A stretch of 32,000 bases of DNA from Polynucleobacter paneuropaeus (GTDB lineage: Bacteria > Pseudomonadota > Gammaproteobacteria > Burkholderiales > Burkholderiaceae): assembly GCF_003261235.1 (NCBI RefSeq), contig NZ_CP030085.1:1779988-1811987 (forward strand), in the 5' to 3' direction. Shown piece after piece: positions 567-23,240 of the stretch. Positions within the stretch are counted from its first letter, which is position 1, and every line of letters starts with the position of its first letter. The translations under genes and the position numbers were made by a program. Below the pieces are notes generated by a model. It searched no databases. It saw nothing but the letters and a program-made list of their open reading frames with translations, and was not told the origin of the DNA.

Positions 567-639
567 ATAGCCCAACAAGTGGGCTATCGTGATTCTTGGT
601 TGCACGGGGCATTATCAACTAAGGCATAGGATGTCTGAC
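567..639 (-). repeat. T-element copy 1 (degenerate): terminator hairpin ATAGCCCAACAAGTGGGCTAT + decayed tRNA-like core
   Basis: Hairpin 567-587 is identical to the other copies. The core TGGTTGCACGGGGCATTATCAACTAAGGCATAGGATG (597-633) aligns with the consensus TGGTGGCCCGGGGCGGAATCGACCAGGGCTGAGGATG with many substitutions. Confidence 0.7.
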
Positions 640-663
640 TATAGCTTTGGACTGATGCCTACT

Positions 664-930
664 TTATTCGTAGTGAGTCCACATTCTTAAGATTCGAACC
701 ATCTTCTCCTTGCGCAAAATTTCATAAACCAAGCGATGTTGAATATTAATTCTGCGTGAGTATGCCCCTTTTAGATCTCCGACTAACTTCTCATAAGGGG
801 GCGGATTTTGGAGAGGATCTACTTCTAAAATATTCAATAAGTCCTGGGCCTTATCTTTAAGGCCTGCGGCAGATAGTTTTTTTGCATCCTTAATGGCATA
901 TTTGGAATAAGCTAAATTCCAAGTCACCAC
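664..930 (-). CDS. yoeB: Txe/YoeB-family toxin (mRNA interferase)
   Basis: 88-aa ORF with YSRRINIQHRLVYEI and a C-terminal HY(E), characteristic of YoeB. Overlaps the upstream antitoxin ORF by 7 nt. Confidence 0.9.
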   Translation of the reverse strand: MVTWNLAYSKYAIKDAKKLSAAGLKDKAQDLLNILEVDPLQNPPPYEKLVGDLKGAYSRRINIQHRLVYEILRKEKMVRILRMWTHYE

Positions 931-1166
931 TTCAATGCCCTTTTACTTTTAGTAATAGGCTCAGCCATTGACTCTTTAATTGACTCACGCATCCCTGGAA
1001 TCGCCAATAGATAAAGCGTTTCCTGAATAGCACTCCAATCTTCTTCAGAAACTAAAACAGCATTTGCTCGCTTGCCAGAAATGACTACTGGCTTGTGTGA
1101 CTCTGCCGCTTGATCAATTAAACGGTAGAAATCTGCTCGAGCTGCACTTGCGGTTAATGTGGTCAT
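924..1166 (-). CDS. yefM: Phd/YefM-family antitoxin
   Basis: ORF 924..1214. I prefer the ATG at 1164-1166 (MTTLTASAARADFYRLID...), preceded by AGGAG. Typical YefM N-terminus and SEEDWxxxxETLYLL motif. Confidence 0.85.
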   Translation of the reverse strand: MTTLTASAARADFYRLIDQAAESHKPVVISGKRANAVLVSEEDWSAIQETLYLLAIPGMRESIKESMAEPITKSKRALKW

Positions 1167-1242
1167 GATTTCACTCCTTTTCAATATGGTACGTAAAAGC
1201 GTACGCTTTGTCAAGCGACCATCTCATCCACCCAACTAATAG

Positions 1243-1315
1243 AAAATGCCCCGCACGAAGCAGAGCATTATTTAAATCTGGTGGCCCGGGGCAGTATCGA
1301 TTAGGGCCGAGAATG
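1243..1315 (-). repeat. T-element copy 2 (variant hairpin CCCCGCACGAAGCAGAG; core TGGTGGCCCGGGGCAGTATCGATTAGGGCCGAGAATG)
   Basis: Core at 1279-1315 ends 1 nt before the stop codon (1317-1319) of the minus-strand lipoprotein gene. Confidence 0.8.
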
Positions 1316-1316
1316 A

Positions 1317-1823
1317 TTAATTAGTGATAAGGCTCATGGTTAGCATCCCATTGTCTATGTCCCCACTATCTTTTTTTAACTCGTCATCCTTAGCGCTATT
1401 AGCTTGTGCACCTGCTGCTGCACCAATAATTAAATCGCCTGGCACAAAAGCCCACAGCGCAGCGCTTACAGCATCACCAGTTGGATTTCTTGGAGAAATC
1501 TGAAATTGATAGCTCTTGCCGGCCTCAAACAGATAGTCATGTGAAAACATGCCTGCTGTATATGAAATATTTACTTTTAAGTTGTGTTTGCCAGCCGTTG
1601 TGTTTAACTGGCATTTATCCCCATTAGGAATAGCGCAGACCTCCAGGCCATCTAACAGAACAATAGCATCTCTAGCGCTCATATCACGACTTCGTTGACG
1701 CTCAAAAATTAAAGTGACGTCCCCACCAGGATTATTAACCGCTGGTTCAAGCTGAGGTGCAGTTTGACAACCCATCAAAATGGCGGTTATGCCGATTATT
1801 AATATCAGCTTTTTCAAGCTCAT
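1317..1823 (-). CDS. Lipoprotein, unknown function
   Basis: ORF 1317..1877. The internal start at 1823 gives MSLKKLILIIGITAILMGC-Q (signal peptide + lipobox). The longer form would run through the terminator hairpin of the next repeat. Confidence 0.75.
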   Translation of the reverse strand: MSLKKLILIIGITAILMGCQTAPQLEPAVNNPGGDVTLIFERQRSRDMSARDAIVLLDGLEVCAIPNGDKCQLNTTAGKHNLKVNISYTAGMFSHDYLFEAGKSYQFQISPRNPTGDAVSAALWAFVPGDLIIGAAAGAQANSAKDDELKKDSGDIDNGMLTMSLITN

Positions 1824-1867
1824 TTGTATCCAGTCATTACTCAACAATATTAATTTGAATATAAATG

Positions 1868-2261
1868 AAAAAACCACCCGAAGGTGGTTTTGGTGTTTCT
1901 TGGTGGCCCGGGGCGGAATCGAACCACCGACACAAGGATTTTCAACTCTGTCCCCCAGACTAAACTCCCGCTAGATCTCAAAAGGTTCACCCCACCCGAG
2001 TCTAACTTTGCGCACAAAACTTTCTTGGGTGTTTGTATGGGGTTGATTTAGTTGAGTTATTTTGACCCACGCAAGGATTAAATGTGAGTTTGGTGGTGTG
2101 ATGGGGATTTGACTGTCACAGGGATGTGATGTCCTTGTCGTGATCGGGATACCCTGCGCATGAAGTGTCCTTTTAAAGGACGTTACTTATTAATGCTGTA
2201 AGTGGATGATAGATTCCTTATATGCGCATATACGTATATATGAGAAGTCCTTTTAAAGGAC
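1868..2261 (-). repeat. Long composite repeat L1: terminator hairpin, tRNA-Phe 3'-half relic, ~220-nt conserved spacer with two TTGAC..CA(A/G)GGATG hairpin modules, two GTCCTTTTAAAGGAC palindromes
   Basis: From about 1893 to 2185 it aligns colinearly with 6752-7040 (L2), with scattered substitutions; the terminator hairpin differs between the two. Hairpin AACCACCCGAAGGTGGTT 1872-1889; palindromes 2167-2181 and 2247-2261. Confidence 0.85.
1901..1945 (-). pseudogene. tRNA-Phe(GAA) 3' half relic (anticodon loop to CCA), no 5' half
   Basis: The reverse complement TTGAAAATCCTTGTGTCGGTGGTTCGATTCCGCCCCGGGCCACCA matches the canonical tRNA-Phe layout: UUGAAAA loop, GUGUC variable loop, T arm, acceptor, ACCA. 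Upstream sequence cannot pair as an anticodon stem, D arm or 5' acceptor strand (no GGCCCGG). Confidence 0.8.
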
Positions 2262-2307
2262 ATCTCAGCGAGCGTCTATTAAAGCAACGGTTACTGCAAT
2301 AAAAGTT

Positions 2308-3117
2308 TTATACCGCCTTATATATTAGGCTCAGCGCAACTAAGAAAGCAAAAATAGCAAAGATTTGTTGCACTCTAGTGCCGCTGATCTTTCTCTCCAT
2401 TAGCTTTCCAAATACAAGCCCCACGAGTGATCCCAAAGCAAATAGGCTGGCAATCTCCACATTTAAATTGCCGGAAGCTAGAGATACAAGAGCCCCACCA
2501 GTAGAAACGATTGCAAGAACACCTAGGGAAGTGGCAACAATGGATTTCATTGGAAGGTCTGTAAATTTCTTTAGTGATGGCACTATGACAAATCCACCGC
2601 CAACTCCCAATAAGCCCGATAAGAAACCAGCAGTTAGGCCTGCATACATTAAAGACCTCGCACATGGCATAGTCCAAATCAATTTACTAATAGACAAATC
2701 AAGCTGACAAGGTGGAGGAGTTGGTGAAGTCGGCAAAGTGCCATGAATAGTCTTATGTGCTTGTATATAGAGCTGTACAGACACAAAAATTAAAATAGCA
2801 CTGAATAGAAGTAGCAATGGCGTATTGGGCACTTTGTTGGCAACCCATAGACCAATAGGGGACATGATTAAGCCAAAGAAAGACATGAAGATTGCCGCTT
2901 TATAGCGCAATACTTTTTCTTTAAGCCCAATAATTGCACCTACAGAAGCTGATAGCGCAATAGCGCATAGTGCAATTGGGCTTGCTTCAGCCACTGGTAA
3001 ATGAACAAAGAACACTAAAAGTGGCACGGAGAGTATGCCGCCGCCCGCCCCTGTAAGTCCCATTAAGATCCCAACAAATACACCTAGAGCTGGAATGATT
3101 AGCGTATGGGAATCCAT
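2308..3117 (-). CDS. TauE/SafE-family (DUF81) sulfite/organosulfonate exporter-type permease, copy 1
   Basis: 269-aa polytopic membrane ORF with the two Gly-rich repeats (GLTGAGGGIL, GLLGVGGGFV) typical of TauE/SafE. About 20 substitutions versus 28844..29653. Confidence 0.9.
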   Translation of the reverse strand: MDSHTLIIPALGVFVGILMGLTGAGGGILSVPLLVFFVHLPVAEASPIALCAIALSASVGAIIGLKEKVLRYKAAIFMSFFGLIMSPIGLWVANKVPNTPLLLLFSAILIFVSVQLYIQAHKTIHGTLPTSPTPPPCQLDLSISKLIWTMPCARSLMYAGLTAGFLSGLLGVGGGFVIVPSLKKFTDLPMKSIVATSLGVLAIVSTGGALVSLASGNLNVEIASLFALGSLVGLVFGKLMERKISGTRVQQIFAIFAFLVALSLIYKAV

Positions 3118-3183
3118 TAGTTGGCCTTCAAGTACAAGTTAATATTCATTGGCATTCGGGGTTTACTGATCCTACAATGAATC

Positions 3184-4059
3184 ATGGAAAATCAATATGC
3201 CCCAATCGTTAAAACCTTTTTTGATGCGCCCACTTGGACTTTTACTCATGTAGTTTATGAAAAGCCAGGTGTTCATTGTGCAGTTATTGACTCGGTGCTC
3301 AATTATGATCCCAAGTCAGGACGAACCAGCACTCATTCAGCAGATGAGGTAATTAAATTTATCCAAGAGCAAAGTCTGAAGGTTGAATGGATTTTAGAAA
3401 CTCATGCCCATGCAGACCATCTAACAGCAGGGTCATATATTAAGGAGCATCTTGGCGGCAAACTGGCAATCGGCAAGCACATTCAAGAGGTCCAGGCTGT
3501 TTTCAAAAACATTTTTCATTTAGAAGATGCATTTCAAGCCAACGGATCTCAATTTGACCATCTGATTGAAGCAAATGAGGAATTGCCTTTAGGTAAGCTA
3601 AAAATTCAATCTTTATTGGTGCCGGGACATACTCCAGCTTGTATGGCCTATGTAATAGGCGATACTATTTTTGTAGGTGACACCATGTTTATGCCTGATG
3701 TTGGTACGGCTAGATGTGATTTTCCTGGTGGTGATGCACATGTTTTATATCAATCAGTGAAGAAGATACTAAGTTTTCCAAATGAAACTAAGCTGTATAT
3801 GTGTCATGACTACCCACCAAACGAGCGGAAAATAGCCTACATGACAACGGTTGGTGAAGAGCGTCAACATAACATTCATATTCATGATGGCGTTTTAGAG
3901 CAAGACTTTGTAGCAATGAGAACAGCAAGAGACTCTACCTTAGAGATGCCCGTATTAATTTTGCCTGCAGTACAAGTAAATATTCGTGCAGGAGAATTTC
4001 CTCCCAAAGAAGCGAATGGCGTTTCTTACCTCAAGATTCCATTAAATTCTCTTGGGTAG
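3184..4059 (+). CDS. MBL-fold metallo-hydrolase (persulfide-dioxygenase/glyoxalase-II-like), copy 1
   Basis: 291-aa ORF with the THAHADH metal motif, then PGHT and CHDY. Paralog of 29720..30586. Divergent from the TauE gene. Confidence 0.85.
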   Translation: MENQYAPIVKTFFDAPTWTFTHVVYEKPGVHCAVIDSVLNYDPKSGRTSTHSADEVIKFIQEQSLKVEWILETHAHADHLTAGSYIKEHLGGKLAIGKHIQEVQAVFKNIFHLEDAFQANGSQFDHLIEANEELPLGKLKIQSLLVPGHTPACMAYVIGDTIFVGDTMFMPDVGTARCDFPGGDAHVLYQSVKKILSFPNETKLYMCHDYPPNERKIAYMTTVGEERQHNIHIHDGVLEQDFVAMRTARDSTLEMPVLILPAVQVNIRAGEFPPKEANGVSYLKIPLNSLG

Positions 4060-4074
4060 TTAATTGATCAAATT

Positions 4075-4308
4075 TTATTTTTGTATTAATAAATTAGCCA
4101 ATTGATCTACTACTTCTGACCACTCTGAGTCTTGGGCCTTAGCTTCAATCAAAAATGCTTTTTGATCTGGTGCCCAGTAAATGGCATCGGGCAGATTAGA
4201 CCCCGGCTTAAGTTGATGTCTTTCTATGTATCTCTCCATATGAATCTTTTGGGATGACAATCCTAACTGCTCAAAAAGCTCTTCCAAAGTTCTATTGTTC
4301 ATGCTCAT
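4075..4308 (-). CDS. DUF2789-like small protein
   Basis: 77-aa ORF. The pattern LEELFEQLGL...FIE..L......EA.FW...QA.FL.E....D.EW.E.VDQL matches my memory of DUF2789. Confidence 0.65.
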   Translation of the reverse strand: MSMNNRTLEELFEQLGLSSQKIHMERYIERHQLKPGSNLPDAIYWAPDQKAFLIEAKAQDSEWSEVVDQLANLLIQK

Positions 4309-4320
4309 CAGAATTCTCCT

Positions 4321-4398
4321 TCACCAGTATTTGAAGCGGGATCTCTCAACATCAACATCCCCACCTATAGCTCGCATCTTCATCTGACAATGTGGGCA
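4321..4398 (-). pseudogene. 3' remnant of a CxxC zinc-ribbon gene, paralog of 24979..25305
   Basis: The minus-strand translation TCPHCQMKMRAIGGDVDVERSRFKYW* aligns with ITCPHCQKPMRAIGADVDAKKPDKDF of the 108-aa protein. The frame is closed by a TAG just upstream, next to a C9 tract (4406-4414). Confidence 0.6.
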
Positions 4399-4458
4399 AG
4401 TCTAGCCCCCCCCCTTGCTAATATCAAAAATGAATGGTGGCGTTGTTTTAGTCCAACT

Positions 4459-4660
4459 TTGACCAACGCAGGGATGACAAAGCCCCAATAGATAAAGCGT
4501 CCTTTTAAAGGACGCTTCTAGTCAATGGGAAAGTTGGAAAACCAAGGGGAAATGGTGCCAGACCGCGGCCTACACTAGAGATTCTATGGACAACTTCTAA
4601 TATTCGGAGAATTCTTGGTGGCCCGGGGCGGAATCGACCAAGGCTAAGGATGCTCGATCC
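4459..4660 (-). repeat. Composite repeat (modules B-C-X-T) including T-element copy 4
   Basis: TTGACCAACGCAGGGATGACAAAGCCCC (4459-4486); 21-nt perfect palindrome AGCGTCCTTTTAAAGGACGCT (4496-4516); ~100-nt X module. The stretch from about 4499 to 4660 aligns with 26917-27079. tRNA-like core at 4616-4653. Confidence 0.85.
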
Positions 4661-4708
4661 TAGTTGGTGATACAGTAAATCTTGATCAAAACACTTTTGG
4701 AGTGAAAG

Positions 4709-5149
4709 ATGCCGACCTATACAGTGACTTACTCAAATACCAAACTAAGTGCCATACAAATGGAAGGTATTGCTCAGGCCATTACCAAAACCCACAATGA
4801 GTGCACTGGAGCGAATACCTACTTTGCTCAAGTGATATTTCAAGAAACTCCAAGTGGCAAACATTTCATGGGAGGTAAGCCCGTTCAAGATAGTCAAATC
4901 TTTCTACATGGACAAATACGAGCAGGGCGACCACCAGAACTCAAAGAAAAACTGATATTAGCAATGCGCGAAGCTTTAATTAAAAGCTCAGGACTCAGTA
5001 AAGATCAAATTTGGATTTATATTGTTGATCTAATTCCCGCCCAGATGATTGAGTATGGAGAAATTCTTCCACTATCAGGTAAAGAGAATGAATGGTTTGC
5101 CAGCTTATCAAGCGATCTTCAAGCAAAACTGAAAGCCTTAGAAAAATAG
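4709..5149 (+). CDS. Tautomerase-superfamily protein (cis-CaaD/Tautomerase_3-like)
   Basis: 146-aa ORF beginning MP (Pro-1 after Met removal is the catalytic residue of the family); size fits the long tautomerases. Its stop codon TAG lies inside the AAAATAGCCC arm region of the next hairpin. Confidence 0.6.
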   Translation: MPTYTVTYSNTKLSAIQMEGIAQAITKTHNECTGANTYFAQVIFQETPSGKHFMGGKPVQDSQIFLHGQIRAGRPPELKEKLILAMREALIKSSGLSKDQIWIYIVDLIPAQMIEYGEILPLSGKENEWFASLSSDLQAKLKALEK

Positions 5150-5214
5150 CCCAACAAGTGGGCTATTGAGATTCTTGGTGGCCCGGGGCGGAATCGACCA
5201 GGGCTGAGGATGCC
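5142..5214 (-). repeat. T-element copy 5
   Basis: Hairpin ATAGCCCAACAAGTGGGCTAT, then core TGGTGGCCCGGGGCGGAATCGACCAGGGCTGAGGATGCC at 5176-5214. It abuts the stop codon (5215-5217) of the minus-strand acyltransferase gene. Confidence 0.9.
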
Positions 5215-6066
5215 TTACTCTGTGGGAGCCAATTCTGCTCCAGCTGGTCTTTTGTAGCGGTTGTAAGACCACATATATTGATATGGCTTAGAAAGTATCA
5301 TCTCTTCAAAATAGTGGTTCATTTCTGTACAGGCATCGACTAGACAATCAGGAAATGCCTCATTCATCAATTGGCTCTTAATGAGCCAGCCCTTTCCTAA
5401 TCCCAGTCTTTCTGCGCTAACAAAAAGGATTGCTACATTTACTTGGCGAGCCAATTTAATTGGAAATGAGGTTGTATAAGCATATTGATTAAAAAATTTA
5501 GCCCACACCCCATCGCCAACGCTAGGCACCTGATCCGCCAATAGGCCAACTACCTCACCCTTTATTAAAGCTCGTTTAATCTGACGAACCCCGCTAATAT
5601 TTGCCTCAACAAAATCAATTTTGGAGTGTTTACGTGATTGAAGCATAAGCTCATTAACCCACCCCTTTCGAGCAGGCCTATACATTACCGTCGCTCTTGT
5701 ATGTTCGGCAAAAATACGAGGCACTATTTCAAAGCCTCCTAAATGTGAAGCAAGAACAATTAAGCCTTTGCCATTTTTGGATAGCTCAATAACTTGATCC
5801 AAGTTTTCAATAGTTACTTTATCAATGGAGGATTTTGGATGCCTCCAAATCCATAATGTGTCAGCAAACATCATTCCAGATTCGGCAGCCGCCCTCCACG
5901 GGGTTGATTTGAATCCCGAATAATGGGCTGCGCTCTGATGATTTTTATATAGGCGTCGTCGGTACCTGGCAGAAAACAAGTAAACCAATACACCCGTGCC
6001 AGCGCCAATAATTTGAATGGCTGCCAATGGAAGTGAGCTAAAGAGCCGCAATATGAAATACAACAT
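5215..6066 (-). CDS. LpxL/HtrB-family lipid A (late) acyltransferase-like protein
   Basis: 283-aa ORF with an N-terminal membrane anchor and the HLGGFE variant of the H(x)4E/D acyltransferase motif. Confidence 0.75.
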   Translation of the reverse strand: MLYFILRLFSSLPLAAIQIIGAGTGVLVYLFSARYRRRLYKNHQSAAHYSGFKSTPWRAAAESGMMFADTLWIWRHPKSSIDKVTIENLDQVIELSKNGKGLIVLASHLGGFEIVPRIFAEHTRATVMYRPARKGWVNELMLQSRKHSKIDFVEANISGVRQIKRALIKGEVVGLLADQVPSVGDGVWAKFFNQYAYTTSFPIKLARQVNVAILFVSAERLGLGKGWLIKSQLMNEAFPDCLVDACTEMNHYFEEMILSKPYQYMWSYNRYKRPAGAELAPTE

Positions 6067-6090
6067 CGGCCATTCTAGACGCTATTAATG

Positions 6091-6169
6091 AAAAAACCAC
6101 CCGAAGGTGGTTTTGGTGTTTCTTGGTGGCCCGGGGCGGAATCGACCAGGACCTAGGATGTCCAATCCT
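6091..6169 (-). repeat. T-element copy 6 (hairpin CCACCCGAAGGTGG variant)
   Basis: Core at 6124-6162. The small distal hairpin AGGATGTCCAATCCT (6155-6169) overlaps the stop codon of 6168..6683. Confidence 0.9.
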
Positions 6170-6683
6170 ATCTTCTATAACTATCTAATTTCTCGCTCAA
6201 AGCCTCAACCGCTTTAGTTAAAGCATAAAGCTCTTTTTCTTTCATCATGTCGATCTTTTGATGAAGTAATTCGATTTCTAGCTCTGCTTTTACATTGACT
6301 TCAAAGTCGTTATTGGCATGTTGCCGATCTATCTCCGAGAGTCTATTCTGACTCATCATGATTGCTGGCGCTGTATAAGCCGCTTGAAATGACAGCATTA
6401 AATTCAAAAGAATGAAAGGGTATGGGTCCCAAACATTGGCATTATTTACAGAGTTATAAGTAATCCAACCCAAAATAGAAACGCTTTGAATAATGATGAA
6501 CTTCCAAGAGCCCACCGTTCTTGCCACCGCATCCGATATTTTTTGCCCAACAGTCAATGGTCCTATGGGTTGCTCGACATGGGCTGTAATTTGGGTCGGC
6601 AGTCCTTGGCGATGCCTTTTTCTGTGGGCACGCAAAGCGTCTAAAACTTGAAGTTCTTGATTGGTAGGTATGGCTGTAGTCAT
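6168..6683 (-). CDS. DUF1003-family membrane protein
   Basis: 171-aa ORF with two TM helices, DPYPFILLNL..S.QAAYTAP.IMMSQNR and a C-terminal coiled coil, as in DUF1003. Confidence 0.75.
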   Translation of the reverse strand: MTTAIPTNQELQVLDALRAHRKRHRQGLPTQITAHVEQPIGPLTVGQKISDAVARTVGSWKFIIIQSVSILGWITYNSVNNANVWDPYPFILLNLMLSFQAAYTAPAIMMSQNRLSEIDRQHANNDFEVNVKAELEIELLHQKIDMMKEKELYALTKAVEALSEKLDSYRR

Positions 6684-6726
6684 GGGGCTCTCCTAGTGTG
6701 CTTTCTGTACTCTACGCCCATAAAAG

Positions 6727-7040
6727 AAAATAGCCCAACAAGTGGGCTATTGAGATTCTTGGTGGCCCGGGGCGGAATCGAACCACCGACACAAGGATTT
6801 TCAACTCTGTCCCCCAGACTAAACTCCCGCTAAATCTCAAAAGGTTCACCCCACCATAGGCTAACTTTGTGCACAAAACTTTCTTGGGTGTTTGTATGGG
6901 GTTGATTTGGTTGAATTATTTTGACCCACGCAAGGAGTGAGAGAAAGTTTGGTGGCGTAGTGGGGATTTGACTGACGCAAGGATGTGATGTCCTTGTCAT
7001 GTTCGGGGTACCCCACGCATGAAGCGTCCTTTAAAAGGAC
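6727..7040 (-). repeat. Long composite repeat L2 (paralog of 1868-2261)
   Basis: Hairpin 6730-6750, tRNA-like part from 6760, conserved spacer, GTCCTTTAAAAGGAC at 7026-7040, 3 nt before the stop of 7044..7406. Confidence 0.85.
6760..6804 (-). pseudogene. tRNA-Phe(GAA) 3' half relic, second copy
   Basis: Identical 45 nt to 1901-1945; the same lack of a 5' half. Confidence 0.8.
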
Positions 7041-7043
7041 GGG

Positions 7044-7406
7044 TTATTTAATTAGCGCCTCTACAAGACGCTCAAACATGTCATCTTCATTCATACCCGC
7101 ATAATCGCCAATTAGATGTTTAGTGATTGAACTTTCTATTTCATCCTTATCAGGCGTATTAAATAACGCTTCAACTTCATCCTCGTCATCAGCTACAACA
7201 TAGTGCCCAAGATTAAAGTCATAGATCTCCCCTTCGAATTCAACTTTTGAAGTAATGATCATTTCATCCCTTCCTTCGCGCAGGCCTGCTTTATTCCAGT
7301 AGAGAATTAAATTCTCATAAAAGTCATCTACTGATTTAACTTCAAATGAACCAAAGTAGCTGTCATTATTAAAATTTCTTGAGGCATGCAAATCAAATTT
7401 TTTCAT
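7044..7406 (-). CDS. Hypothetical acidic protein
   Basis: ORF 7044..7421. The ATG at 7404-7406 (MKKFDLH...) has GGAG about 10 nt upstream. Asp/Glu-rich. No family recognised. Confidence 0.6.
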   Translation of the reverse strand: MKKFDLHASRNFNNDSYFGSFEVKSVDDFYENLILYWNKAGLREGRDEMIITSKVEFEGEIYDFNLGHYVVADDEDEVEALFNTPDKDEIESSITKHLIGDYAGMNEDDMFERLVEALIK

Positions 7407-7644
7407 AGCAATTTTCTCCAAATATTTTTCTTATTCTATCTCCGCTAGATATCAATACTAGCTATACCTCTCATCCCGATAGTCACAAAAATCAATTTAG
7501 TCCAAAAGATTACTAAAAATTCCCTGAATTCATACCAAATCGCCTGATTTTCAAAATAAGAATTATTACGAATACGAGGTGGGGTTAGATTAGATCACCA
7601 GGGGCCGAGATCTCCACTGGCGTTGAAAATTGCGCGGTAAATTT

Positions 7645-8025
7645 TTAGGGCTTGCTACTGATCGGCTTAATAGCCTGTTGGTGATGCTGGCGATCTTTCT
7701 CGAGCTTTAATTGTTGTTTTGCTGAATCTACATTACGCCTAAGAGAGGTAACTCTTGCCTGCTTGAGATTCATTGTCTTAATAGGCTTAATCATTTTGAT
7801 AGCTTCATCTACAGTAAGCGCATCTTCATCCTCAGACAAGCTGGGGGCAGATGCCAAACTATTCATACCAAATTGATATTGCAGAATCAGCCGCGCATGG
7901 ATCTGACTATCGGCAAATACTGCTGTTTTAACTTGATGACCATTGATACGGACAAGGGCTTGATATTTGTTCATACAAATATTTATAGTCTCGGCGCCCC
8001 TCGGGTCTTTTAAATCATGTCGCAT
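7645..8025 (-). CDS. Hypothetical protein
   Basis: 126-aa ORF, co-oriented with its neighbours. No family recognised. Confidence 0.5.
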   Translation of the reverse strand: MRHDLKDPRGAETINICMNKYQALVRINGHQVKTAVFADSQIHARLILQYQFGMNSLASAPSLSEDEDALTVDEAIKMIKPIKTMNLKQARVTSLRRNVDSAKQQLKLEKDRQHHQQAIKPISSKP

Positions 8026-8257
8026 TCGGCTCTTTGCCAGCTGGCTCGCCTCTGCGATGGGGGCTTCAGCCCACCCATCTTTTCCAAAACGTGCACCACG
8101 TGGTGCTGGAAAATGATGGTCTTCTCTGTCCTAAGCGCACCAGCTGGTGCAGGACATTCGTCTTAGGCTTCGCTGGATCGGTGGCGACAGCTATCGCCAC
8201 CTATGGGGCTACCTTGCGGTGCGCCCCATATATAAATGTCCTTTAAAAGGACAAACA
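8026..8257. other. GC-rich, multi-hairpin intergenic element, possible structured RNA or ssDNA element
   Basis: 37 of 60 nt are G/C in 8041-8100 by hand count, against an AT-rich background. Six consecutive palindromes/hairpins (coordinates in findings), ending with GTCCTTTAAAAGGAC at 8238-8252. Confidence 0.5.
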
Positions 8258-8695
8258 TCAACGGCCAAAGCCCGCACGTACAGCGCCGCTTGCGGCTTCA
8301 ATTTGAGTATCAAGCTCACCCGCCTCTACGGCGACCTTAATAATCTCTAGGGCTTTAATCAGCTCCTCTGCTGAATTCACTTCTACAGCAGTTTTACCTT
8401 TAGCAAACTCAATGATCTTGGCACCATAGCGGATGTTTAAGCAAACTTTGCCATCCATAGCAACAAACCACCACTGACGAATACGCTTTTCATGTTCAAT
8501 GGTTTTACGTGCACCAGTGATGTCTTTAACTGTTTTGAATTTCTTAACAGTAAATGTGCCGCCTTCTTTGCTGGCTTTAGCTAACTGGATCTGCTCCCAG
8601 ACTTTGTTGGCTAATTTATTACGACGATGTAGTACTGGCGGTATAGCTGTTGGCTTTTTTGAATTAACCATTTTCAAACTGTTTAATGTGCTCAT
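8258..8695 (-). CDS. Hypothetical protein
   Basis: 145-aa ORF. No confident family assignment. Confidence 0.6.
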   Translation of the reverse strand: MSTLNSLKMVNSKKPTAIPPVLHRRNKLANKVWEQIQLAKASKEGGTFTVKKFKTVKDITGARKTIEHEKRIRQWWFVAMDGKVCLNIRYGAKIIEFAKGKTAVEVNSAEELIKALEIIKVAVEAGELDTQIEAASGAVRAGFGR

Positions 8696-9360
8696 CTTTT
8701 TCTCCTATAAGTTAATGGGCACACTTAATTTATTGTCAGAGTTTTTGGATGGACAACCTCTTTTTGCCAAAAGCCACAGAGATCTAATTATCTGACCCAG
8801 ATCTTGTCTCCTTTTATTAGGTTTCACTAAATAACTACGACGACAAAGCAGAAGAACGTTTTGTATGCCATAACTTATTACTACTGAAACAAGGGCAGTG
8901 ACACCCAGTCGTTATGTCACCCTAAAGCTGGACTTAGAGTCGCAGTCATGGAAATTCTGGGCGGTAGCAGAGACTTGTATTCACCATCCTTTACAGGACG
9001 CCATTAGCCTTGCTGACTAATATGAATCAAGTATATAAATTAGCACAAAGATCGTAAAACCTAGTTTTATGGATCACGAGAAAGCCCTGCTTACACAGCA
9101 ACTTTCAAACAAGACAAAGGTAGCCACTTATTGCTTTTGTCATTGTTGCGTTTCAAGCCGCACGTAAAAGGAGACAGCGAAACCGCCCTTCCCAAACTGG
9201 TTGTGCCCATAAGTGGTGTAGTAAAGAACTCAACAAAAGTCCTTTTCTATTACTGAGCCTGTTGCTTAAGGCTCAGTGTAGGTTGAATCTTCCAAAAGCT
9301 CTTAATAAGAAAAAGAAATGTGATGAGCGACAAGCGAAATCACAGGAGAACGTAGTTCGC

Positions 9361-9999
9361 CTATCTATCTATTTCAATAAATTCAATATTTCTTCCTGAT
9401 ATTGAATTAAATTCTTCAATACAAGTTTCTCTTAAATCCTCAATTCGCTCATCCATTTCTTGGAACGACATGATGTCATCCCTGCTTAAGTCAGTTTCTT
9501 CTTCTAATACATCATCAATATCGTCGATATCACATGACCAGCTATAGCTTAATTCTTCTTCCTCTTTGTGCTCAATGAATCCAAGTAATTTGTCAAAACA
9601 GACAATTCTTGTACCAATTAAATGGGGGTTATTGTCCTTATAATCCATCTGAACTACAACATCGGGATCTATGATTGAAGCGCACTTAGCAATATGATCT
9701 TGTAACTTTTCAGGGGCGATATTTTTACTTTCAAACTCAAGCTTATGGGTTGAACCAAAATACCAGCAACCATGAGCTCCAAGTAATTCACCACCATCAA
9801 ATTCATCCCCTTTACTCATGCCATAAAGTATTCTTGTGACAGCAGAATATCTCTCCGCATTTTTATCAAACGAGTATGTTCCAGAGCTATCTGTATTTTT
9901 ATCGAAATCATTCTTAAATCTTCGGATAATTTCTTTTTCTAATTCACGAATTTTTTCATTGCCATAAAAAGTAAACGTGCTTTCTACAGGTGTAGACAT
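9361..9999 (-). CDS. Hypothetical highly acidic protein
   Basis: 212-aa ORF. The C-terminal third is very Asp/Glu-rich (DIDDIDDVLEEETDLSRDD...). Confidence 0.6.
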   Translation of the reverse strand: MSTPVESTFTFYGNEKIRELEKEIIRRFKNDFDKNTDSSGTYSFDKNAERYSAVTRILYGMSKGDEFDGGELLGAHGCWYFGSTHKLEFESKNIAPEKLQDHIAKCASIIDPDVVVQMDYKDNNPHLIGTRIVCFDKLLGFIEHKEEEELSYSWSCDIDDIDDVLEEETDLSRDDIMSFQEMDERIEDLRETCIEEFNSISGRNIEFIEIDR

Positions 10000-10316
10000 T
10001 TTTCACCTCAAATTAAATTTGTTTAAGTAACTATAGCTAATTTTTATAACAACAGAATAGTTTTAAGCGGAAATCTTTCAAGCTCGCTGGCTTGGGTGGC
10101 TGAGCCAAAATTTAAAACGCTTATAGGTCGTTTTAAAAGGTCATCAAAATATCGTGGCGAAAATGCCACGATAAATATAAGAGAACAGTACTACTCTTAT
10201 ATTTTTGCCTAACTCATTGATAAAAAAGTACTTCTTTTTCAGCCATTTTCGGTTGCCCAAACCGAATCTAAGAAAACATACTGTAGTTCTGTATTTAATA
10301 TATTTGAGGAGAAAGT

Positions 10317-10883
10317 ATGTCACAAGCTAGAGTTTTAAATCCACAGGAACTACGCCGAGTTTTAGACCATGTTGCTACACGTAGGCATTCAGCACGTAAT
10401 CGCGCTATGTTGCTGTTAACGCACTACGCGGGTATGCGAGTCGCTGAAGTAGCCGCACTACGCATAAACGACGTTTTAAACGGCGACAGTACTATTAAGG
10501 GTGAAGTGCGCTTAATGCCCGAACAAACCAAGGGCAAACACCCTCGTACTGTTTACTTAAATGAACGGATGCAAAAGGAGCTGGCGCAGTACATCAAAGT
10601 AATCAAAATCAAAGATGCAACGAAACCCTTGTTTTATACACAGAAACAGGCGGGGTTCTCATCCAACTCTTTGACCCAGTACTTCTTTTACCTTTATCGC
10701 AATGTCGGCCTAGCTGGATGTAGCTCACATTCAGGTAGAAGGTCTTTTTTAACTGGACTTGCCAATAAAGGCACAGCGATTCATATATTGAAATCTCTCG
10801 CTGGGCACCGCAACATCAGCACCACCGCCACCTATCTCTACAGCAGTCCCGATCAACTCAAAGCCGCAGTAGAGCTAATTTAA
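10317..10883 (+). CDS. Small tyrosine recombinase (catalytic domain only, FimB/FimE-size)
   Basis: 188-aa ORF with GGAG upstream. Catalytic signature: AGMRVAEV (Arg), HSGRRSF (His-x-x-Arg), LAGHRNISTTATYLY (His...Tyr). Confidence 0.85.
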   Translation: MSQARVLNPQELRRVLDHVATRRHSARNRAMLLLTHYAGMRVAEVAALRINDVLNGDSTIKGEVRLMPEQTKGKHPRTVYLNERMQKELAQYIKVIKIKDATKPLFYTQKQAGFSSNSLTQYFFYLYRNVGLAGCSSHSGRRSFLTGLANKGTAIHILKSLAGHRNISTTATYLYSSPDQLKAAVELI

Positions 10884-11222
10884 CTATTTGGAGAAGTCGC
10901 TAAACACTTCTCCAGTGTATTTGTCATTAACCCTTGCTGTCTTTAAGTTGACAGTAAAAGCCAATCCTCTTGTGGCAAGTCGATGACCAAACCACTTACA
11001 CAGAACCTCAACTCTAGTTGCATTGTTCTTTCCATCAAGAATAAGTACTTGATCACCAAGCAAGAAAGTGCCACTAAATGTTGAACGCCTATATTTCGCA
11101 TCGGTAACATCAATTACACGAGCATTCTTAACCTTTATAGGCTTTATAGGCTTCGCTAATTTTGTAGTGTGAGGAATATCACTTTCCTCTTCCCACACTG
11201 GTGCTTTGTAATAGAAATCCAT
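10884..11222 (-). CDS. Hypothetical protein
   Basis: 112-aa ORF convergent with the recombinase. No family recognised. Confidence 0.5.
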   Translation of the reverse strand: MDFYYKAPVWEEESDIPHTTKLAKPIKPIKVKNARVIDVTDAKYRRSTFSGTFLLGDQVLILDGKNNATRVEVLCKWFGHRLATRGLAFTVNLKTARVNDKYTGEVFSDFSK

Positions 11223-11285
11223 ATAACCCTCATATTTGCTTACAAGTTGTTATTAGGATATCAAATTTGTCCTTTTAAAGGGCAT

Positions 11286-12050
11286 TTACTGTGCGGGGAA
11301 TTTACCTAGAACCACATTCTCAATTATTAGCTCGGCACCACTTAGATACCTTTTTACGCTTGAGCCCATAGTGTTCCTCCTTGCGGCATTTATAGCTGGA
11401 AAGAGCTTTGGAGAAGTCATTGCTTTGGGGATTAAAGTTAAGCTCTCACCTATCTTCCAATTGGGCACTTTTGGCTTCTTTCCTTTGTGCTTCATGTATT
11501 CATCATATACATCTAAGGTTTTCTCTAAATTTTGTACTGTGTAATTTCTAGCCAATTGATACTTGGCATTACTTTTAGTTGATCCCTTAGTTGGTCTACC
11601 ACGTCCTGCCGTATGGCGCTCTTTTAATAGTTGTGCAAAACGACTTTGTAAATACCTTTTACTAGACGTTAGTGGTACAGCAAGAATCATCACCTCATCT
11701 TTGCTCCAACCATCTTGCCACTGTGACTTATCTTCCAGCTCTGTTAATTTCATTGCCCCATAGTTTTCGGCGAATAAATTCGGTCCTCGCTCGTCCTTAG
11801 TCCACCACTTGTGAAAGTCATCATCTCTCACATCTCCAAAGTCTTTATATAGCTCGGCATGTTTTCCTTTGCCGCCACGCTCACAACACTCTAAATATTC
11901 TTGATTACGGCGTAAGAACTGCCACCACCAGTAATAAGGACTGCGCTTTTGATATCCAAGTGGCAGTCTTTTGTTTTTTGTACCAAATATAGGGTACGGA
12001 GCTAGGAATCTTCTTGGCATTTTCTTGGCATGTAAATTGCAGGAATTCAT
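11286..12050 (-). CDS. Hypothetical regulator-like protein; the WWWQFLRRNxEY motif resembles the proteobacterial transcriptional-regulator-like domain DUF6499 seen in integrative elements
   Basis: 254-aa ORF. The motif YYWWWQFLRRNQEYLE is recalled from DUF6499/DUF2285-type ICE regulators (memory-based, unverified). Confidence 0.6.
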   Translation of the reverse strand: MNSCNLHAKKMPRRFLAPYPIFGTKNKRLPLGYQKRSPYYWWWQFLRRNQEYLECCERGGKGKHAELYKDFGDVRDDDFHKWWTKDERGPNLFAENYGAMKLTELEDKSQWQDGWSKDEVMILAVPLTSSKRYLQSRFAQLLKERHTAGRGRPTKGSTKSNAKYQLARNYTVQNLEKTLDVYDEYMKHKGKKPKVPNWKIGESLTLIPKAMTSPKLFPAINAARRNTMGSSVKRYLSGAELIIENVVLGKFPAQ

Positions 12051-12156
12051 AATCGTATCAGAAATATACCCGTTCTGCGTTCTAATTTAATTATGGCCAA
12101 GCGGTTAAATTTCTTAACAAGCAGTCATATTTCTTAATACAGAAAGAGAGTTAAAA

Positions 12157-12939
12157 ATGAATGCATTATTAAACGCAGTAGATACAACCCCTGTTACAAC
12201 AAACGTCCTTTTAAAGGACACAGCCAAAGTAACTAACGTTGCTGTTGGTACTACCGTTGCCCTTACTAATATGGAAGCAAATCGTATTAACTGGGAACAA
12301 GGTGCCTACAGAACAAGTAATCAAGCCTTATATGCAGTATTAGGCGATTGCTTGGCTTTTTGTGGTGATATGACACTTCCAGAAGCTAAACAACGTAGCG
12401 CATCTTTAGAGTCTTTCTATAAGGATCGCGGCTACACATATAAAAAGGATCTCCCATTAGCGACACGTGTAGTACGTGCAGTTTTTGGATCAAGAGATCG
12501 CCGTCGTATTAGCACCTACTCTTTGGTTATTCGTCAGGCAATGAAAGAGAAAGTTTTGATAGCTGACTTTTCAGCGTGGGTGGAAGAGCGTGGCGGGGTT
12601 CAAGAGATCAGTCTTGGCAAGAGCGCTACTTACATCAAGCCTGCGGACAAAGCTGAGATTGCTAAAAGCAATCTAAAAGGCAAAACACCGATTGGCTATG
12701 CCAAGTCTGAATTGCTCTCACATGTTGCTGATGCTCAGTACCTAGGCGATATGTGCGTACTTTTAGCAGAGCAACAAGCTGATGGCAGTTTTGGTGTCTA
12801 TGCAGTTTTGCGTCAAGACGGACTGGTTAAGTCTGCCTTTACCTCTTTGTATGCGGTTGGCAAAGAGCTTGAAGACAAAGCCAAAGCAGAGATCAAAGCG
12901 GCAAATGATGCTGATGGTGCGGTTGCTAAATCAGCTTAA
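12157..12939 (+). CDS. Hypothetical protein
   Basis: 260-aa ORF with an AAGAGAG-type RBS. It contains an in-frame copy of the GTCCTTTTAAAGGAC palindrome at 12205-12219 (encodes VLLKD). Confidence 0.65.
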   Translation: MNALLNAVDTTPVTTNVLLKDTAKVTNVAVGTTVALTNMEANRINWEQGAYRTSNQALYAVLGDCLAFCGDMTLPEAKQRSASLESFYKDRGYTYKKDLPLATRVVRAVFGSRDRRRISTYSLVIRQAMKEKVLIADFSAWVEERGGVQEISLGKSATYIKPADKAEIAKSNLKGKTPIGYAKSELLSHVADAQYLGDMCVLLAEQQADGSFGVYAVLRQDGLVKSAFTSLYAVGKELEDKAKAEIKAANDADGAVAKSA

Positions 12940-12957
12940 TTAATCAAGGGGAATGTT

Positions 12958-13677
12958 ATGAGCGTTCCCCATTCTTATTTGAAAGGAATACAAATGTTTA
13001 CGAAAGGAAATAATCATGAGCCTAAAACAATTGATGACATCATCTTTGGAAATAATGAATCTAAATTGCGGATTGAAGATATTGTCTCGGGTGCCGAAGA
13101 ATTACCTTACAGCGGCAAATCAGCCATTCTTTTATACGGAGTCTTTGGGACAGGCAAAACCACACTGGCCAAAATGCTACCTAACCACATTGAATATGGC
13201 AAAACTAAAGAAGAGTTAGTTTGGGATCCAGTGTTTATAGGCTGTCAGCAGGGCTTTAATGGGCCACAGCTAATGACTAAGATTGATGCAATCATGACAA
13301 CAATGTCGCTAAACGTCAGCGGCCTTCATTACTTCATCCTTGATGAGGTGGATAACTTAACCAAGCTGGCGCAACAAAGTTTGAAAACGGCCTTGAATAC
13401 GACATTAGGTGTATTTGTGCTCACAACAAACAATGTTTCTCAATTAGATAAGGGCATGTTAGATCGTTGCATCTTAGTTGAGATGAATGCGGCAAATCCG
13501 AATGCTTATTTGGATATTGCCAAATCCATTGCCAATGAAACAGGAGTCACTTTATCTAATGATGAGCTTCTACCAACTATTCAGGCCGCCAATGGATCAT
13601 TTCGTAACTTGTTTCATAACGTGGGGCGCTTGGCTAGACGTAAGGCGGAAAAGGTGCCACCTAATGCTATCTACTAA
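12958..13677 (+). CDS. AAA+ ATPase, clamp-loader/RFC-like
   Basis: 239-aa ORF. Walker A GVFGTGKTT, Walker B ILDEVDNL followed by AQQSLKTALN (RFC box V-like), and LDRCILVEM (SRC-motif-like). Confidence 0.8.
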   Translation: MSVPHSYLKGIQMFTKGNNHEPKTIDDIIFGNNESKLRIEDIVSGAEELPYSGKSAILLYGVFGTGKTTLAKMLPNHIEYGKTKEELVWDPVFIGCQQGFNGPQLMTKIDAIMTTMSLNVSGLHYFILDEVDNLTKLAQQSLKTALNTTLGVFVLTTNNVSQLDKGMLDRCILVEMNAANPNAYLDIAKSIANETGVTLSNDELLPTIQAANGSFRNLFHNVGRLARRKAEKVPPNAIY

Positions 13678-13687
13678 GGAGGGAACT

Positions 13688-13873
13688 ATGGAATCAGCAT
13701 GGATTGTCTTTCTTGCAGACGATGATGAATTTGTTATTGAAGTCTTTGATAACGAAAAGGCGGCCATTGATTGCTTTAAGTACCACATTAGCTCTGCACC
13801 ATCAGCCACCTACATCGTTAGAATAGACCCAACAAACTTTCAGTCTACCTTTACCGTCCCACTTGAAGAGTAA
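13688..13873 (+). CDS. Small hypothetical protein
   Basis: ATG at 13688 preceded by AAGGAGG. It is the 3' part of ORF 13487..13873, whose upstream part overlaps the ATPase gene out of frame. Confidence 0.55.
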   Translation: MESAWIVFLADDDEFVIEVFDNEKAAIDCFKYHISSAPSATYIVRIDPTNFQSTFTVPLEE

Positions 13874-13880
13874 AGTTAAT

Positions 13881-13905
13881 AGCCCACTTCCGAGTGGGCT
13901 TTTTT
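13881..13905 (+). terminator. Rho-independent terminator
   Basis: AGCCCACT-TCCG-AGTGGGCT followed by TTTTT. Lies between the convergent genes 13688..13873 and 13904..15178. Confidence 0.8.
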
Positions 13906-15178: not shown

Positions 15179-15318
15179 TTTGTAGGTGGCGTGCTGTTGT
15201 CATACAGCTATTTTATTTTCAGCTTTTGTTTTGAGCAACCTTAAAAAGAAACGCCTTCCTCTTTTATTAATTATGTTTACCTCGTAGTTTTGGCCACATT
15301 GAATGATATTCATTTTGG

Positions 15319-17829: not shown

Positions 17830-17830
17830 A

Positions 17831-19997: not shown

Positions 19998-20110
19998 TTA
20001 TATTTTTTTATTTCTCTAATTTGCCTTCTACAGCCTTATTGTCTAGTCAGGCTAACCTTGTTTAATGCTTTAACTATCATTTTGCGTTATTTGGCACGTG
20101 TAATCAATTT

Positions 20111-20127
20111 TGTCGTTTTAAACGACA
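20111..20127. repeat. 17-nt perfect palindrome TGTCGTTTTAAACGACA
   Basis: Lies in the divergent intergenic region between 19997 and 20203. The same 17-mer occurs at 21803-21819, 23517-23533 and 26818-26834. Confidence 0.9.
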
Positions 20128-20202
20128 TTATTAGTTAAGGGGCTCATCTAGTGAGCTTCTGGTCTCATATTCTGACTATTCGCCATAACTTAGGGGATAG
20201 TC

Positions 20203-21800: not shown

Positions 21801-21802
21801 TT

Positions 21803-21819
21803 TGTCGTTTTAAACGACA
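21803..21819. repeat. 17-nt palindrome TGTCGTTTTAAACGACA
   Basis: Starts 3 nt after the WYL gene stop codon. Confidence 0.9.
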
Positions 21820-21942
21820 CGGCAAGTAACCACCCCGGATGGTTGGCGCGGTTAGGCAGAGTTAGGGAAAATAGACAGCGGTAGGCAAAGTCCAACAGCG
21901 TTGAATACTGTGGGTAACAGTAAACACTAAGACTAGAAACGA

Positions 21943-23238: not shown

Positions 23239-23240
23239 TG

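Follow-up and report, generated by a model that had tools for sequence, protein, structure and literature searches.

Are the repeated copies of a tRNA 3′ end that punctuate a run of small gene units the recombination sites of a system that takes up and discards single genes, or are they the debris of successive integrations? The question is raised by a 32,000-nt stretch of the Polynucleobacter paneuropaeus chromosome (contig NZ_CP030085.1, positions 1,779,988 to 1,811,987; hereafter the window), in which the 3′ end of tRNA-Phe recurs between units of one to six genes. Comparison with other genomes and with metagenomes revealed a gene-swapping hotspot behind tRNA-Phe, where small modules are gained, discarded and rearranged from one strain or species to another. 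The reading favored here, with a probability of roughly 0.6, is that the array belongs to a flexible ("additive") genomic island, which has the 3′ end of the only tRNA-Phe(GAA) gene as its anchor and was built by a miniaturised, integrase-less and integron-like form of tandem accretion, in which a tyrosine integrase termed int424 would act in trans.

A 22-nt core, TGGTGGCCCGGGGCGGAATCGA, was found 12 times in the window at no more than three mismatches, always on the plus strand, with no match expected and none obtained in 100 shuffled sequences. A thirteenth copy, at 597, is decayed and surfaced only through the repeat families, giving a full plus-strand set of 12 copies and one decayed copy. 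An earlier inspection of the letters alone (the sequence-only reading) had listed 13 core starts, all on the plus strand, and had taken the core for a canonical tRNA 3′ end; 12 of these starts were recovered at their exact positions, with 597 as the decayed copy, and the reverse complement of the core is indeed identical to the 3′ end of real Polynucleobacter tRNA-Phe(GAA) genes, over their last 26–29 nt. No complete tRNA was detected in the window by ARAGORN. On the minus strand, which is the tRNA strand, (T)TCGATTCCGCCCCGGGCCACCA closes every copy; AGAA or AGAT comes next, and then either a terminator-like hairpin or, in two of the window copies, a ∼115-nt module (R3) in its place. The hairpins are stable, carry a T-run, lie within ∼12 nt past AGAA or AGAT and fall into few families (H1–H6).

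The copies at 1901 and 6760, which the sequence-only reading had listed with the others, are of a different and longer type. These type-A sites consist of true tRNA-Phe sequence back to the anticodon loop and share an arm of ∼235–270 nt with a palindrome at its end. All remaining copies are of type B, where the sequence diverges from the tRNA to the left of the T-loop and follows a consensus of its own, AGGAT-tAGaC-ATCCT-cGGCCCT-GG-(T)TCGATTCCGCCCCGGGCCACCAAGAA, derived from 79 unique copies. The type-B site spans ∼46 nt with the general form AGGAT-N5-ATCCT-N-GGCCCTGG-(T)TCGATTCCGCCCCGGGCCACCAAGAA, of which the final 26–29 nt are identical to the tRNA-Phe end; one T of the T-loop is absent in ∼60% of the copies, and the T-stem has not been preserved. 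On either side of a 6–7-bp spacer, (C)GATTCC, type B has gained the arms of an imperfect 10-bp inverted repeat (GGCCCTGGTC and GCCCCGGGCC). Dyad symmetry averages 6.9/10 (up to 8/10) in the T-loop-deletion variant with the 6-bp spacer and 6.3/10 in the full variant with the 7-bp spacer, as compared with 3–4/10 in the tRNA itself. Judged by its sequence, this inverted repeat with its spacer would correspond to the core-site layout of a tyrosine recombinase.

Read along the tRNA strand, a unit is composed of a terminator hairpin, one to six genes and a ∼46-nt type-B site. Whole units differ between strains. Two metagenome contigs from different samples (L001 and L002; loci and contigs found in the scans described below bear L numbers) are 99.8–100% identical to the window, yet in both position 5172 is joined directly to 1926, and the missing 3.27 kb comprises the tautomerase cassette and the unit of TauE, metallo-beta-lactamase (MBL) and DUF2789 genes. 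The junction is a hybrid site, made of the left half of the 5176 copy and the right flank of the 1901 copy. A systematic search for presence/absence polymorphism, in which both flanks had to be at least 90% identical for a case to be counted as clean, yielded three further examples: L171 compared with L170 (three cassettes, 5.3 kb), L239 and L240 compared with L196 (one cassette, 690 bp) and L255 compared with L242 (one cassette, 970 bp). There are thus four independent clean cases in all, one of them seen in five contigs, and every breakpoint lies inside the core of the shared site.

The same units were found in other species and in other orders. Interspecies homology blocks are single cassettes, which begin within the preceding site and stop 1–10 nt past their own CCA. 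The window carries the BrnT/BrnA cassette (BrnTA), then DUF3106 and later the lipid-A acyltransferase-like (LpxL) cassette, and L122 has the order DUF3106, a cassette X, LpxL, two more cassettes and BrnTA. At least four contexts were recorded for the BrnTA cassette, and four different neighbors precede the cassette that lies upstream of it; the LpxL cassette has differing downstream neighbors in L001, L069/L108 and L122. At least two different upstream partners, and at most seven, were recorded for 47 of the 191 cassette families with known neighbors. Between GTDB species representatives the cassettes are 97–99% identical (99.3% for L042 and L108; 97.7% over 3.7 kb for L069 and L108), whereas core genes beside the tRNA are 77–82% identical (L053 and L065), which indicates recent horizontal exchange. 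As in integrons, then, these are small, co-oriented cassettes with one 3′ site each, which are gained, lost and shuffled at that site.

Variation within the sites locates the exchange. The T-loop indel remains with the left flank and the AGAT/AGAA variant with the right flank (H3). Across 397 junctions the hairpin family tracks the downstream cassette (majority fraction 0.82; 25 of 47 clusters uniform) more closely than the upstream one (0.63; 12 of 49). These three linkages define the cassette as the hairpin, the genes and the left half of a site, with exchange within CGATTCCGCCCCGGGCCACCAAGA. Units are therefore gained, lost and reordered by exchange inside the shared core, in an interval that runs from the T-loop to CCA+3.

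Genomes, one per species, were scanned for the core followed by AGAA (at least 120 loci) and metagenomes for a type-B-specific 33-mer (at least 120 contigs); the genome figures, including any on the absence of core copies elsewhere in a genome, cover the listed matches only. Among these, dense type-B arrays are found in Polynucleobacter and in unclassified freshwater betaproteobacterial metagenome-assembled genomes, the densest being L122 with eight sites in 8 kb, followed by L069 with six and several loci with five, and the median spacing of sites in genome loci is 867 bp (79 spacings). The listed lake-metagenome contigs have at least two sites in 87 of 120 cases, with a median spacing of 1126 bp, and in 119 of the 120 all sites are on one strand. 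The real tRNA-Phe gene stands at the head of the array in four genomes (L042, L021, L065 and L100) and in metagenome contig L128, and wherever a locus contains the tRNA the repeats are all co-oriented with it. What follows its CCA varies by species and is H1, H2 or R3, i.e. the start of the first cassette. Among the matches listed, type-B sites occur only in Polynucleobacter-like genomes and other genera have classical type-A repeats only; in Oxalobacteraceae, the matches are the real tRNA-Phe, at times with one or two such repeats. The copies thus lie in one-orientation arrays downstream of tRNA-Phe, and the pattern of a dispersed repetitive extragenic palindromic (REP) or terminator-type element, i.e. 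both orientations, genome-wide occurrence and no unit polymorphism, was not observed among the listed matches. The sequence-only reading had proposed cassette accretion through a tRNA-derived site, and clustering, unit polymorphism and reordering support it. Three points need revision: an integrase is present, the sites are double-strand-type sites conserved in sequence and without attC-like covariation of structure, and the array falls into a known class and is not a new integron class.

The integrase lies within the array itself, in a 15.2-kb integrative island (21978..6760) with defence-type cargo. No IntI-like gene had been noticed in the window, which is wrong in substance: two tyrosine-recombinase genes are present, and neither encodes an IntI. 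The first, int424 (13904–15178, minus strand), is a full-length tyrosine integrase that matches the PHROG 1 integrase at 7e-31 and belongs to a family with 2827 matches at E ≤ 1e-20. The second (10317–10883, plus strand) encodes a 188-aa tyrosine recombinase with the catalytic domain only; it is co-inherited with int424 in most islands that cover the region, a few kb away and on the opposite strand, and could be a second recombinase, an invertase or a directionality factor. The island body (7044–21934, minus strand) further includes genes for DUF6641, an AAA ATPase, a T5orf172/ResIII helicase, an Eco57I-type methylase and a WYL regulator. At the left junction (21935–22024, minus strand), the type-B left half of the upstream cassette is followed by the core (21978–21999) and by the island hairpin (AAAATGACTGC..). 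The right end is attR-like and consists of the island arm (6805–7041, minus strand), which has a palindrome at its end (7025–7041), and a type-A site with an H1 hairpin (6725–6808, minus strand; tRNA-Phe identity at 6760–6804).

The same borders delimit complete islands in L232 (9.8 kb), L158 (12.7 kb) and L227 (9.7 kb). In all three and in the window, the left border is any left half plus the core plus a hairpin matching that at window position 21978, and the right border is the arm plus a type-A site plus the core. The window island's own end is a classical tRNA-Phe att site. In L136–L139 the int424 module consists of int424, the AAA ATPase, two unknown genes, the small recombinase and DUF6641, and closes ∼6.4 kb downstream in an arm and type-A site as at window positions 6756–6985; in general, the int424 islands carry the integrase, an AAA ATPase and unknown genes. 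A second copy of the arm (1946–2182, minus strand; 87% identity to 6805–7041), with its terminal palindrome at 2166–2182, adjoins the other type-A site of the window, at 1870–1949 on the minus strand (H2 hairpin at 1870–1891; tRNA-Phe from anticodon loop to CCA at 1901–1945), and the same arm closes int424-type islands in other contigs.

An int424-like gene was found in 11 of the 120 listed array contigs, always on the tRNA strand, and an int424 homolog directly follows the real tRNA-Phe in L035. The integron layout, with a conserved integrase beside the tRNA gene, was looked for and rejected, as no partner holds a fixed position there: an integrase is found upstream of the tRNA only in L100 and L022 and downstream in L035, and the upstream genes in L053, L065 and L112 are ordinary core genes. 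No recombinase genes were found in the mini-cassettes and no conjugation genes were seen. A 13-kb viral contig (L125) bears a 51-nt type-A repeat at both ends and is a circular or excised element using the same tRNA. A phage or satellite as vehicle of the type-B cassettes was rejected, since the matches in IMG/VR are real tRNAs and type-A sites only, and no attP-type junction of the int424 island was found in that database.

The Polynucleobacter-1 RNA motif (RF01718) at 8893–9032 on the plus strand is the sole Rfam match at gathering score in the window, and it indicates a Polynucleobacter genome. Nine of ten int424 islands checked contain it, placed either shortly upstream of int424, on the strand opposite to that gene, or on the far side of the small recombinase (carriers: the window, L136, L137, L139, L140, L158, L169, L206, L227 and L232), and it appears to be a mobile-element RNA.

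A mechanism that would accommodate these observations is as follows. The free cassette would be the hairpin, genes and left half closed through the core, and the partner of this circle in recombination, via the shared core, would be the tRNA-Phe gene or any array site. The exchange would be site-specific and catalysed in trans by an int424-family integrase of co-resident islands, with the hexamer (C)GATTCC as the predicted crossover or overlap, since the inverted repeat around it has the layout of a tyrosine-recombinase site. New units would enter at the tRNA gene, which would play the part of attI; insertion there would leave the tRNA intact with the hairpin of the cassette directly past CCA, and older cassettes would come to lie farther from the gene. 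One or more units would be excised whenever any two sites recombine. Entry at the tRNA would explain why each unit needs a terminator right after the core, namely to end the tRNA transcript, and why the most distal sites would be decayed. Decay is seen at 597 and 1279, the two most distal sites of the window, and at the last site of L128 and of L053. As islands and mini-cassettes share one core and one junction logic, action in trans of the island integrase is the most economical explanation, and a recombinase rather than homologous recombination would probably move the cassettes.

Several points weigh against this account. The sites are direct repeats of 26–70 nt, so that all of the observed deletions could arise by homologous recombination. 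Neither the tRNA nor the arrays have an integrase as a regular neighbor, seven 8-kb array blocks being without any, and int424's own islands use type-A sites, not type-B. The linkage of hairpin and downstream cassette has ∼18% exceptions, BrnTA for instance being preceded by H3 or H2, so some additional exchange around the hairpin occurs. The polarity of decay toward the distal end is seen in few examples (the window and L128), the activity of int424 and the excision circles are predictions from sequence, and the restriction of core copies to the array is seen among the listed matches.

The first of these objections leads to a different view of the whole locus, as a passive scar: the debris of successive island or prophage integrations at tRNA-Phe, shaped by internal deletions and by later RecA-type recombination between tRNA fragments, with cassettes that are not site-specifically mobile. 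Much at this tRNA fits such a history, including the classical type-A repeats, the complete islands and the 13-kb phage-like element with its type-A attP. The arm at 1946–2182 flanks a unit without an integrase, as a remnant would, breakpoints inside 26–70-nt repeats are the expected outcome of homologous recombination, and hairpin swapping suggests conversion-type events; such a history is also the usual description of additive islands with repeated tRNA ends (PMC10872708, PMC3698932, bioRxiv 10.1101/2020.12.28.424599). Type B, however, is not random tRNA decay, for its 79 unique copies have their own consensus and have gained an inverted repeat. The units are uniformly small, with exactly one site and one terminator each, and outside Polynucleobacter the same tRNA has just one or two classical repeats per locus among the matches listed. 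Single cassettes that are 97–99% identical are found across species with core-exact boundaries and in differing order, and such sharing requires insertion, not deletion alone. We regard a mere scar as rather unlikely.

Site-specific movement could also be the work of another enzyme, either a chromosomal recombinase encoded elsewhere, the 188-aa recombinase or host Xer, with the int424 island a mere passenger. The use of type-A and not type-B sites by the int424 islands and the lack of a nearby integrase in most array stretches speak for this, as do the co-inheritance of the small tyrosine recombinase with int424 in most islands covering the region and the integrase-like genes upstream of the tRNA in L100 and L022. 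Nonetheless, the int424 type is the sole recombinase family repeatedly linked to arrays among the matches listed, and islands and cassettes have a common core and junction logic. The GC-rich core moreover seems unlike the dif consensus, which counts against Xer. The involvement of a different recombinase is therefore considered improbable.

Accretion by way of a DNA site is also to be weighed against a role at the RNA level, or that of a REP/terminator element, in which the repeat would be a tRNA-like 3′-UTR tag with a terminator that marks or processes cassette mRNAs and has no part in recombination. A terminator-like hairpin follows every copy, copies stand right after the stop codons of co-oriented genes, and the repeat includes the T-loop, the 3′ acceptor strand and CCA. 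The sequence-only reading had placed the repeat 0–25 nt after the stop codon, which applies to units with genes along the tRNA strand and fails for the tautomerase, MBL and cupredoxin genes, which run in the opposite direction. The sites are oriented with the tRNA and not with the gene, as the antisense cassettes at 4709–5149 and 22142–23238 make plain, the hairpin belongs to the downstream unit, and the copies are confined to one-orientation arrays at one locus among the matches listed. RNAalifold found no consensus structure or covariation for type B, pairing of the anticodon-like stem stands at 74.7% of sites/positions compared with 73.2% in shuffles, and the T-stem is broken, with the 1-nt T-loop deletion in ∼60% of copies. 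A tRNA or tRNA-like RNA was rejected, as ARAGORN found none and Rfam, at gathering and at permissive scores, returned only a 17-nt T-arm match to tmRNA and chance matches, with none for the type-B sites as such. In the absence of consensus structure and covariation, attC-like or tRNA-like folding was rejected as the basis of conservation; together with the lack of an Rfam match, this places the conservation of type B at the level of DNA sequence. An RNA-level role is thus very improbable. That the array might be a true integron whose attC sites resemble a tRNA end by chance can be all but dismissed. Its cassettes are indeed small, mostly in one orientation and rich in toxin-antitoxin and orphan genes, but the sites show conservation of sequence and not of structure, with no R″/L″–L′/R′ pairing, and the anchor is a tRNA gene and not an attI beside an intI gene. 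On the integron-integrase model TIGR02249 the 188-aa recombinase reaches 43 bits, where the cut-off is 265, no integron-integrase match was obtained for int424, and neither recombinase gene adjoins the tRNA or the array start.

The phenomenon falls into a known class, that of tandem accretion at tRNA genes by additive flexible genomic islands and integrase-less cis-mobilisable elements (CIMEs), and is not a new integron class. Additive flexible islands include one at the single tRNA-Phe of Alteromonas (PMC3698932); in fGI-2 of Ca. Methylopumilus the last 20 nt of tRNA-Lys recur (PMC10872708), partial tRNAs lie between the tycheposons of Prochlorococcus islands (bioRxiv 10.1101/2020.12.28.424599), and additive islands in Polynucleobacter have been mentioned in general terms (bioRxiv 10.1101/2022.03.25.485477). 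No description of the present tRNA-Phe array or of the type-B site was found in the papers searched, the main Polynucleobacter island study lying outside them. With these islands the array shares the anchor at a tRNA 3′ end, direct repeats of that end at the borders between insertions, strain-variable content, tyrosine-integrase islands and a streamlined planktonic host. Identity of the repeat with the tRNA, which restores the gene, runs from the anticodon loop to CCA in type A and covers the last 26–29 nt in type B, with the exchange interval inside. It differs in that the units are mostly ∼0.5–3 kb and have no integrase of their own, only the 15.2-kb island carrying one, and in its dedicated, non-tRNA type-B end with a gained inverted repeat, the terminator at each unit start, the density of up to eight sites in 8 kb and the single cassettes common to several species.

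Three further systems invite comparison. Chromosomal integrons likewise form one-orientation arrays of small, mostly single-gene cassettes with one 3′ site each, in which toxin-antitoxin and orphan genes are common, gain, loss and shuffling take place at the site, and the cassette pool is common to several species. In the array, by contrast, the site is tRNA-derived and conserved in sequence, unlike the structure-conserved attC, the anchor is a tRNA gene in place of attI, the candidate integrase is a non-IntI enzyme on a mobile island inside the array, and a terminator precedes each cassette, which precludes common expression from a Pc promoter. CIMEs are integrase-less elements bounded by the att sites of a related integrative element and presumed to be moved by it in trans; they accrete in tandem with integrative and conjugative elements (ICEs), e.g. 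ICESt3 of Streptococcus thermophilus, at the 3′ end of a tRNA or other gene. A genome contains few of them; they are kilobases in length and evidently ICEs in decay. The cassettes resemble them as integrase-less segments between att sites, in tandem with an integrative element at a tRNA 3′ end, and they lack recombination genes and share core and junction logic with the co-resident int424 islands; they differ in comprising dozens of gene-sized modules with a specialised site and no conjugation genes seen. The pdif (XerC/D) modules of Acinetobacter plasmids are small, often of one gene or one toxin-antitoxin pair, have no recombinase of their own and are reshuffled between replicons; pdif sites are Xer sites of alternating orientation on plasmids. 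Common to both are small, recombinase-less modules flanked by short recombination sites, whereas those described here have tRNA-derived sites in a single orientation and are chromosomal, at one locus.

What is unusual here is the miniaturised, gene-sized, integrase-less cassette with its specialised site and built-in terminator. A bolder proposal, which we put forward only tentatively, is that Polynucleobacter possesses a second, independent kind of integron, with tRNA-Phe as the capture site, an island-borne non-IntI tyrosine integrase acting in trans, and hundreds of gene-sized cassettes passing between species, each with a dedicated 46-nt pseudo-tRNA site, a true recombinase core site in which GATTCC is the crossover, and with a terminator of its own that shields expression of the tRNA; if so, gene flow in these streamlined plankton would run mainly through the array. 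In streamlined bacteria of fresh water and the sea, plasmids and conjugative elements are few, yet accessory genomes are large and change fast, and how single genes move between such bacteria has been accounted for only in part, tycheposons being one example. The present locus offers gene-by-gene modularity at a tRNA hotspot, and its defined site, mapped exchange interval, candidate integrase and predicted crossover, along with the many natural polymorphisms in time-series lake metagenomes (several contigs come from the Trout Bog sample series), make the mechanism directly testable. Were the exchange driven by the integrase, the locus would be a convergent, integron-like capture platform assembled from ordinary tRNA-island parts, and the type-B site would serve as a simple sequence tag with which to search out the mobile genes of this abundant freshwater genus.

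The remaining units of the window are described from the most distal end. For 567–7040 the gene content had been read correctly from the translations, Pfam confirming YoeB/YefM, TauE, MBL, DUF2789, tautomerase, lipid-A acyltransferase-like and DUF1003 proteins. The most distal site is the decayed type-B copy with an H1 terminator hairpin at 566–588 (566–642, minus strand; identified through the repeat families), followed by a cassette of a YefM antitoxin (924–1214) and a YoeB/ParE-type toxin (664–930), both on the minus strand (664–1214). The next site (1245–1316, minus strand) has a partly decayed core (1279–1300) and an H3 hairpin (1245–1269), and is abutted by the stop codon of a 186-aa orphan, a putative lipoprotein (1317–1877, minus strand) with no Pfam or NCBIfam match. 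Beyond the type-A site and its arm lies the three-gene unit absent from L001 and L002 (2308–4308, mixed strands), with TauE (2308–3117, minus), MBL (3184–4059, plus) and DUF2789 (4075–4308, minus); it has a paralogous counterpart at 28844–30586. A type-B site (4498–4661, minus strand; core 4616–4637) with an R3 module ending in a palindrome (4498–4514) then precedes the tautomerase-family cassette (4709–5149, plus strand), which is antisense to the array. The type-B site at 5140–5221 (minus strand; core 5176–5197; H1 hairpin) is one breakpoint of the 3.27-kb polymorphism and is followed by the lipid-A acyltransferase-like cassette (5215–6066, minus strand), a type-B site with an H2 hairpin (6093–6169, minus strand; core 6124–6145) and the DUF1003 membrane protein cassette (6168–6683, minus strand), next to the right end of the island.

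On the other side of the island, a plus-strand unit antisense to the array (22078–23579) contains a cupredoxin gene (22142–22474), a 255-aa open reading frame (ORF) and palindromes. A type-B site with an H1 hairpin (23630–23715, minus strand; core 23669–23690) separates it from a six-gene unit (23730–26788, minus strand) that includes FGE-sulfatase-like (24044–24979) and OmpA-like (25857–26429) genes. The type-B site at 26917–27081 (minus strand; core 27035–27056) has an R3 module and is followed by a unit on mixed strands (27081–30658) with cytochrome c-like, SorA-like molybdopterin oxidoreductase, TauE2 and MBL2 genes, and then by a type-B site with an H1 hairpin (30712–30792, minus strand; core 30747–30768). 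The DUF3106 protein cassette (30791–31222, minus strand), whose product had no match in an exact-protein look-up, is separated by another type-B site with an H1 hairpin (31295–31370, minus strand; core 31326–31347) from the BrnT toxin and BrnA antitoxin cassette (31383–31897, minus strand). The last site (31926–32000, minus strand; core 31972–31993; H3 hairpin) is cut by the window end and belongs to a DUF6803 cassette located upstream in L129–L135.

Several sequence features accompany the sites. A family of 17-nt palindromes, TGTC(C/G)TTTWAAA(C/G)GACA, has 16 members in the window (starts at 2166, 2246, 4498, 7025, 8237, 11268, 12204, 20111, 21803, 23300, 23517, 23563, 26819, 26917, 28797 and 30642), compared with 0.19 expected, and the half-sites co-vary as GTCC..GGAC or GTCG..CGAC. 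Their density per 10 kb is 1.8 in Polynucleobacter loci and 0.04 elsewhere, with none in the core genes upstream of the tRNA. They prefer certain distances from CCA, +80–105 and +125–205 after it and −58 or approximately −236 to −266 before it, and look like putative arm-type or accessory-protein sites or operators. The ∼115-nt R3 module was found at 4514–4615 and 26934–27034 in the window, at 4378–4480 in L042 and in L048 and L064, and it also follows the real tRNA-Phe of genome ZE-4; it may be what originally flanked the tRNA on its downstream side, or else a module that acts as small RNA or promoter. A conserved motif, TTTTC(A/T)TTTGG(G/T)C, is found after most terminator hairpins, whichever their family, at many loci (e.g. 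31926–31940 and 30700–30712); it may be a pairing partner of CCAAGA, an extension of the terminator or a −35-like box. A promoter of its own after each terminator was rejected, a simple sigma-70 scan downstream of the terminators having returned fewer sites than shuffled sequences.

Two pairs of modules in the window are paralogous at 83–93% identity, 1–437 with 28187–28626, which hold the 5′ part of the SorA-like molybdopterin oxidoreductase gene, and 2304–4059 with 28840–30586, which hold the TauE and MBL pair. The likeness suggests sulfite- or sulfur-related cargo that was acquired twice or duplicated. In two contigs with a tRNA-Phe array or island, the cargo includes SAM-I/IV riboswitches (L158, 2468–2565; L214, 6207–6304), which indicates that regulated metabolic genes also travel here. 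Finally, a 21-nt (7-codon) repeat is present in four to five tandem copies at 20284–20388, in a plus-strand ORF (20203–20517) beside the WYL regulator gene.

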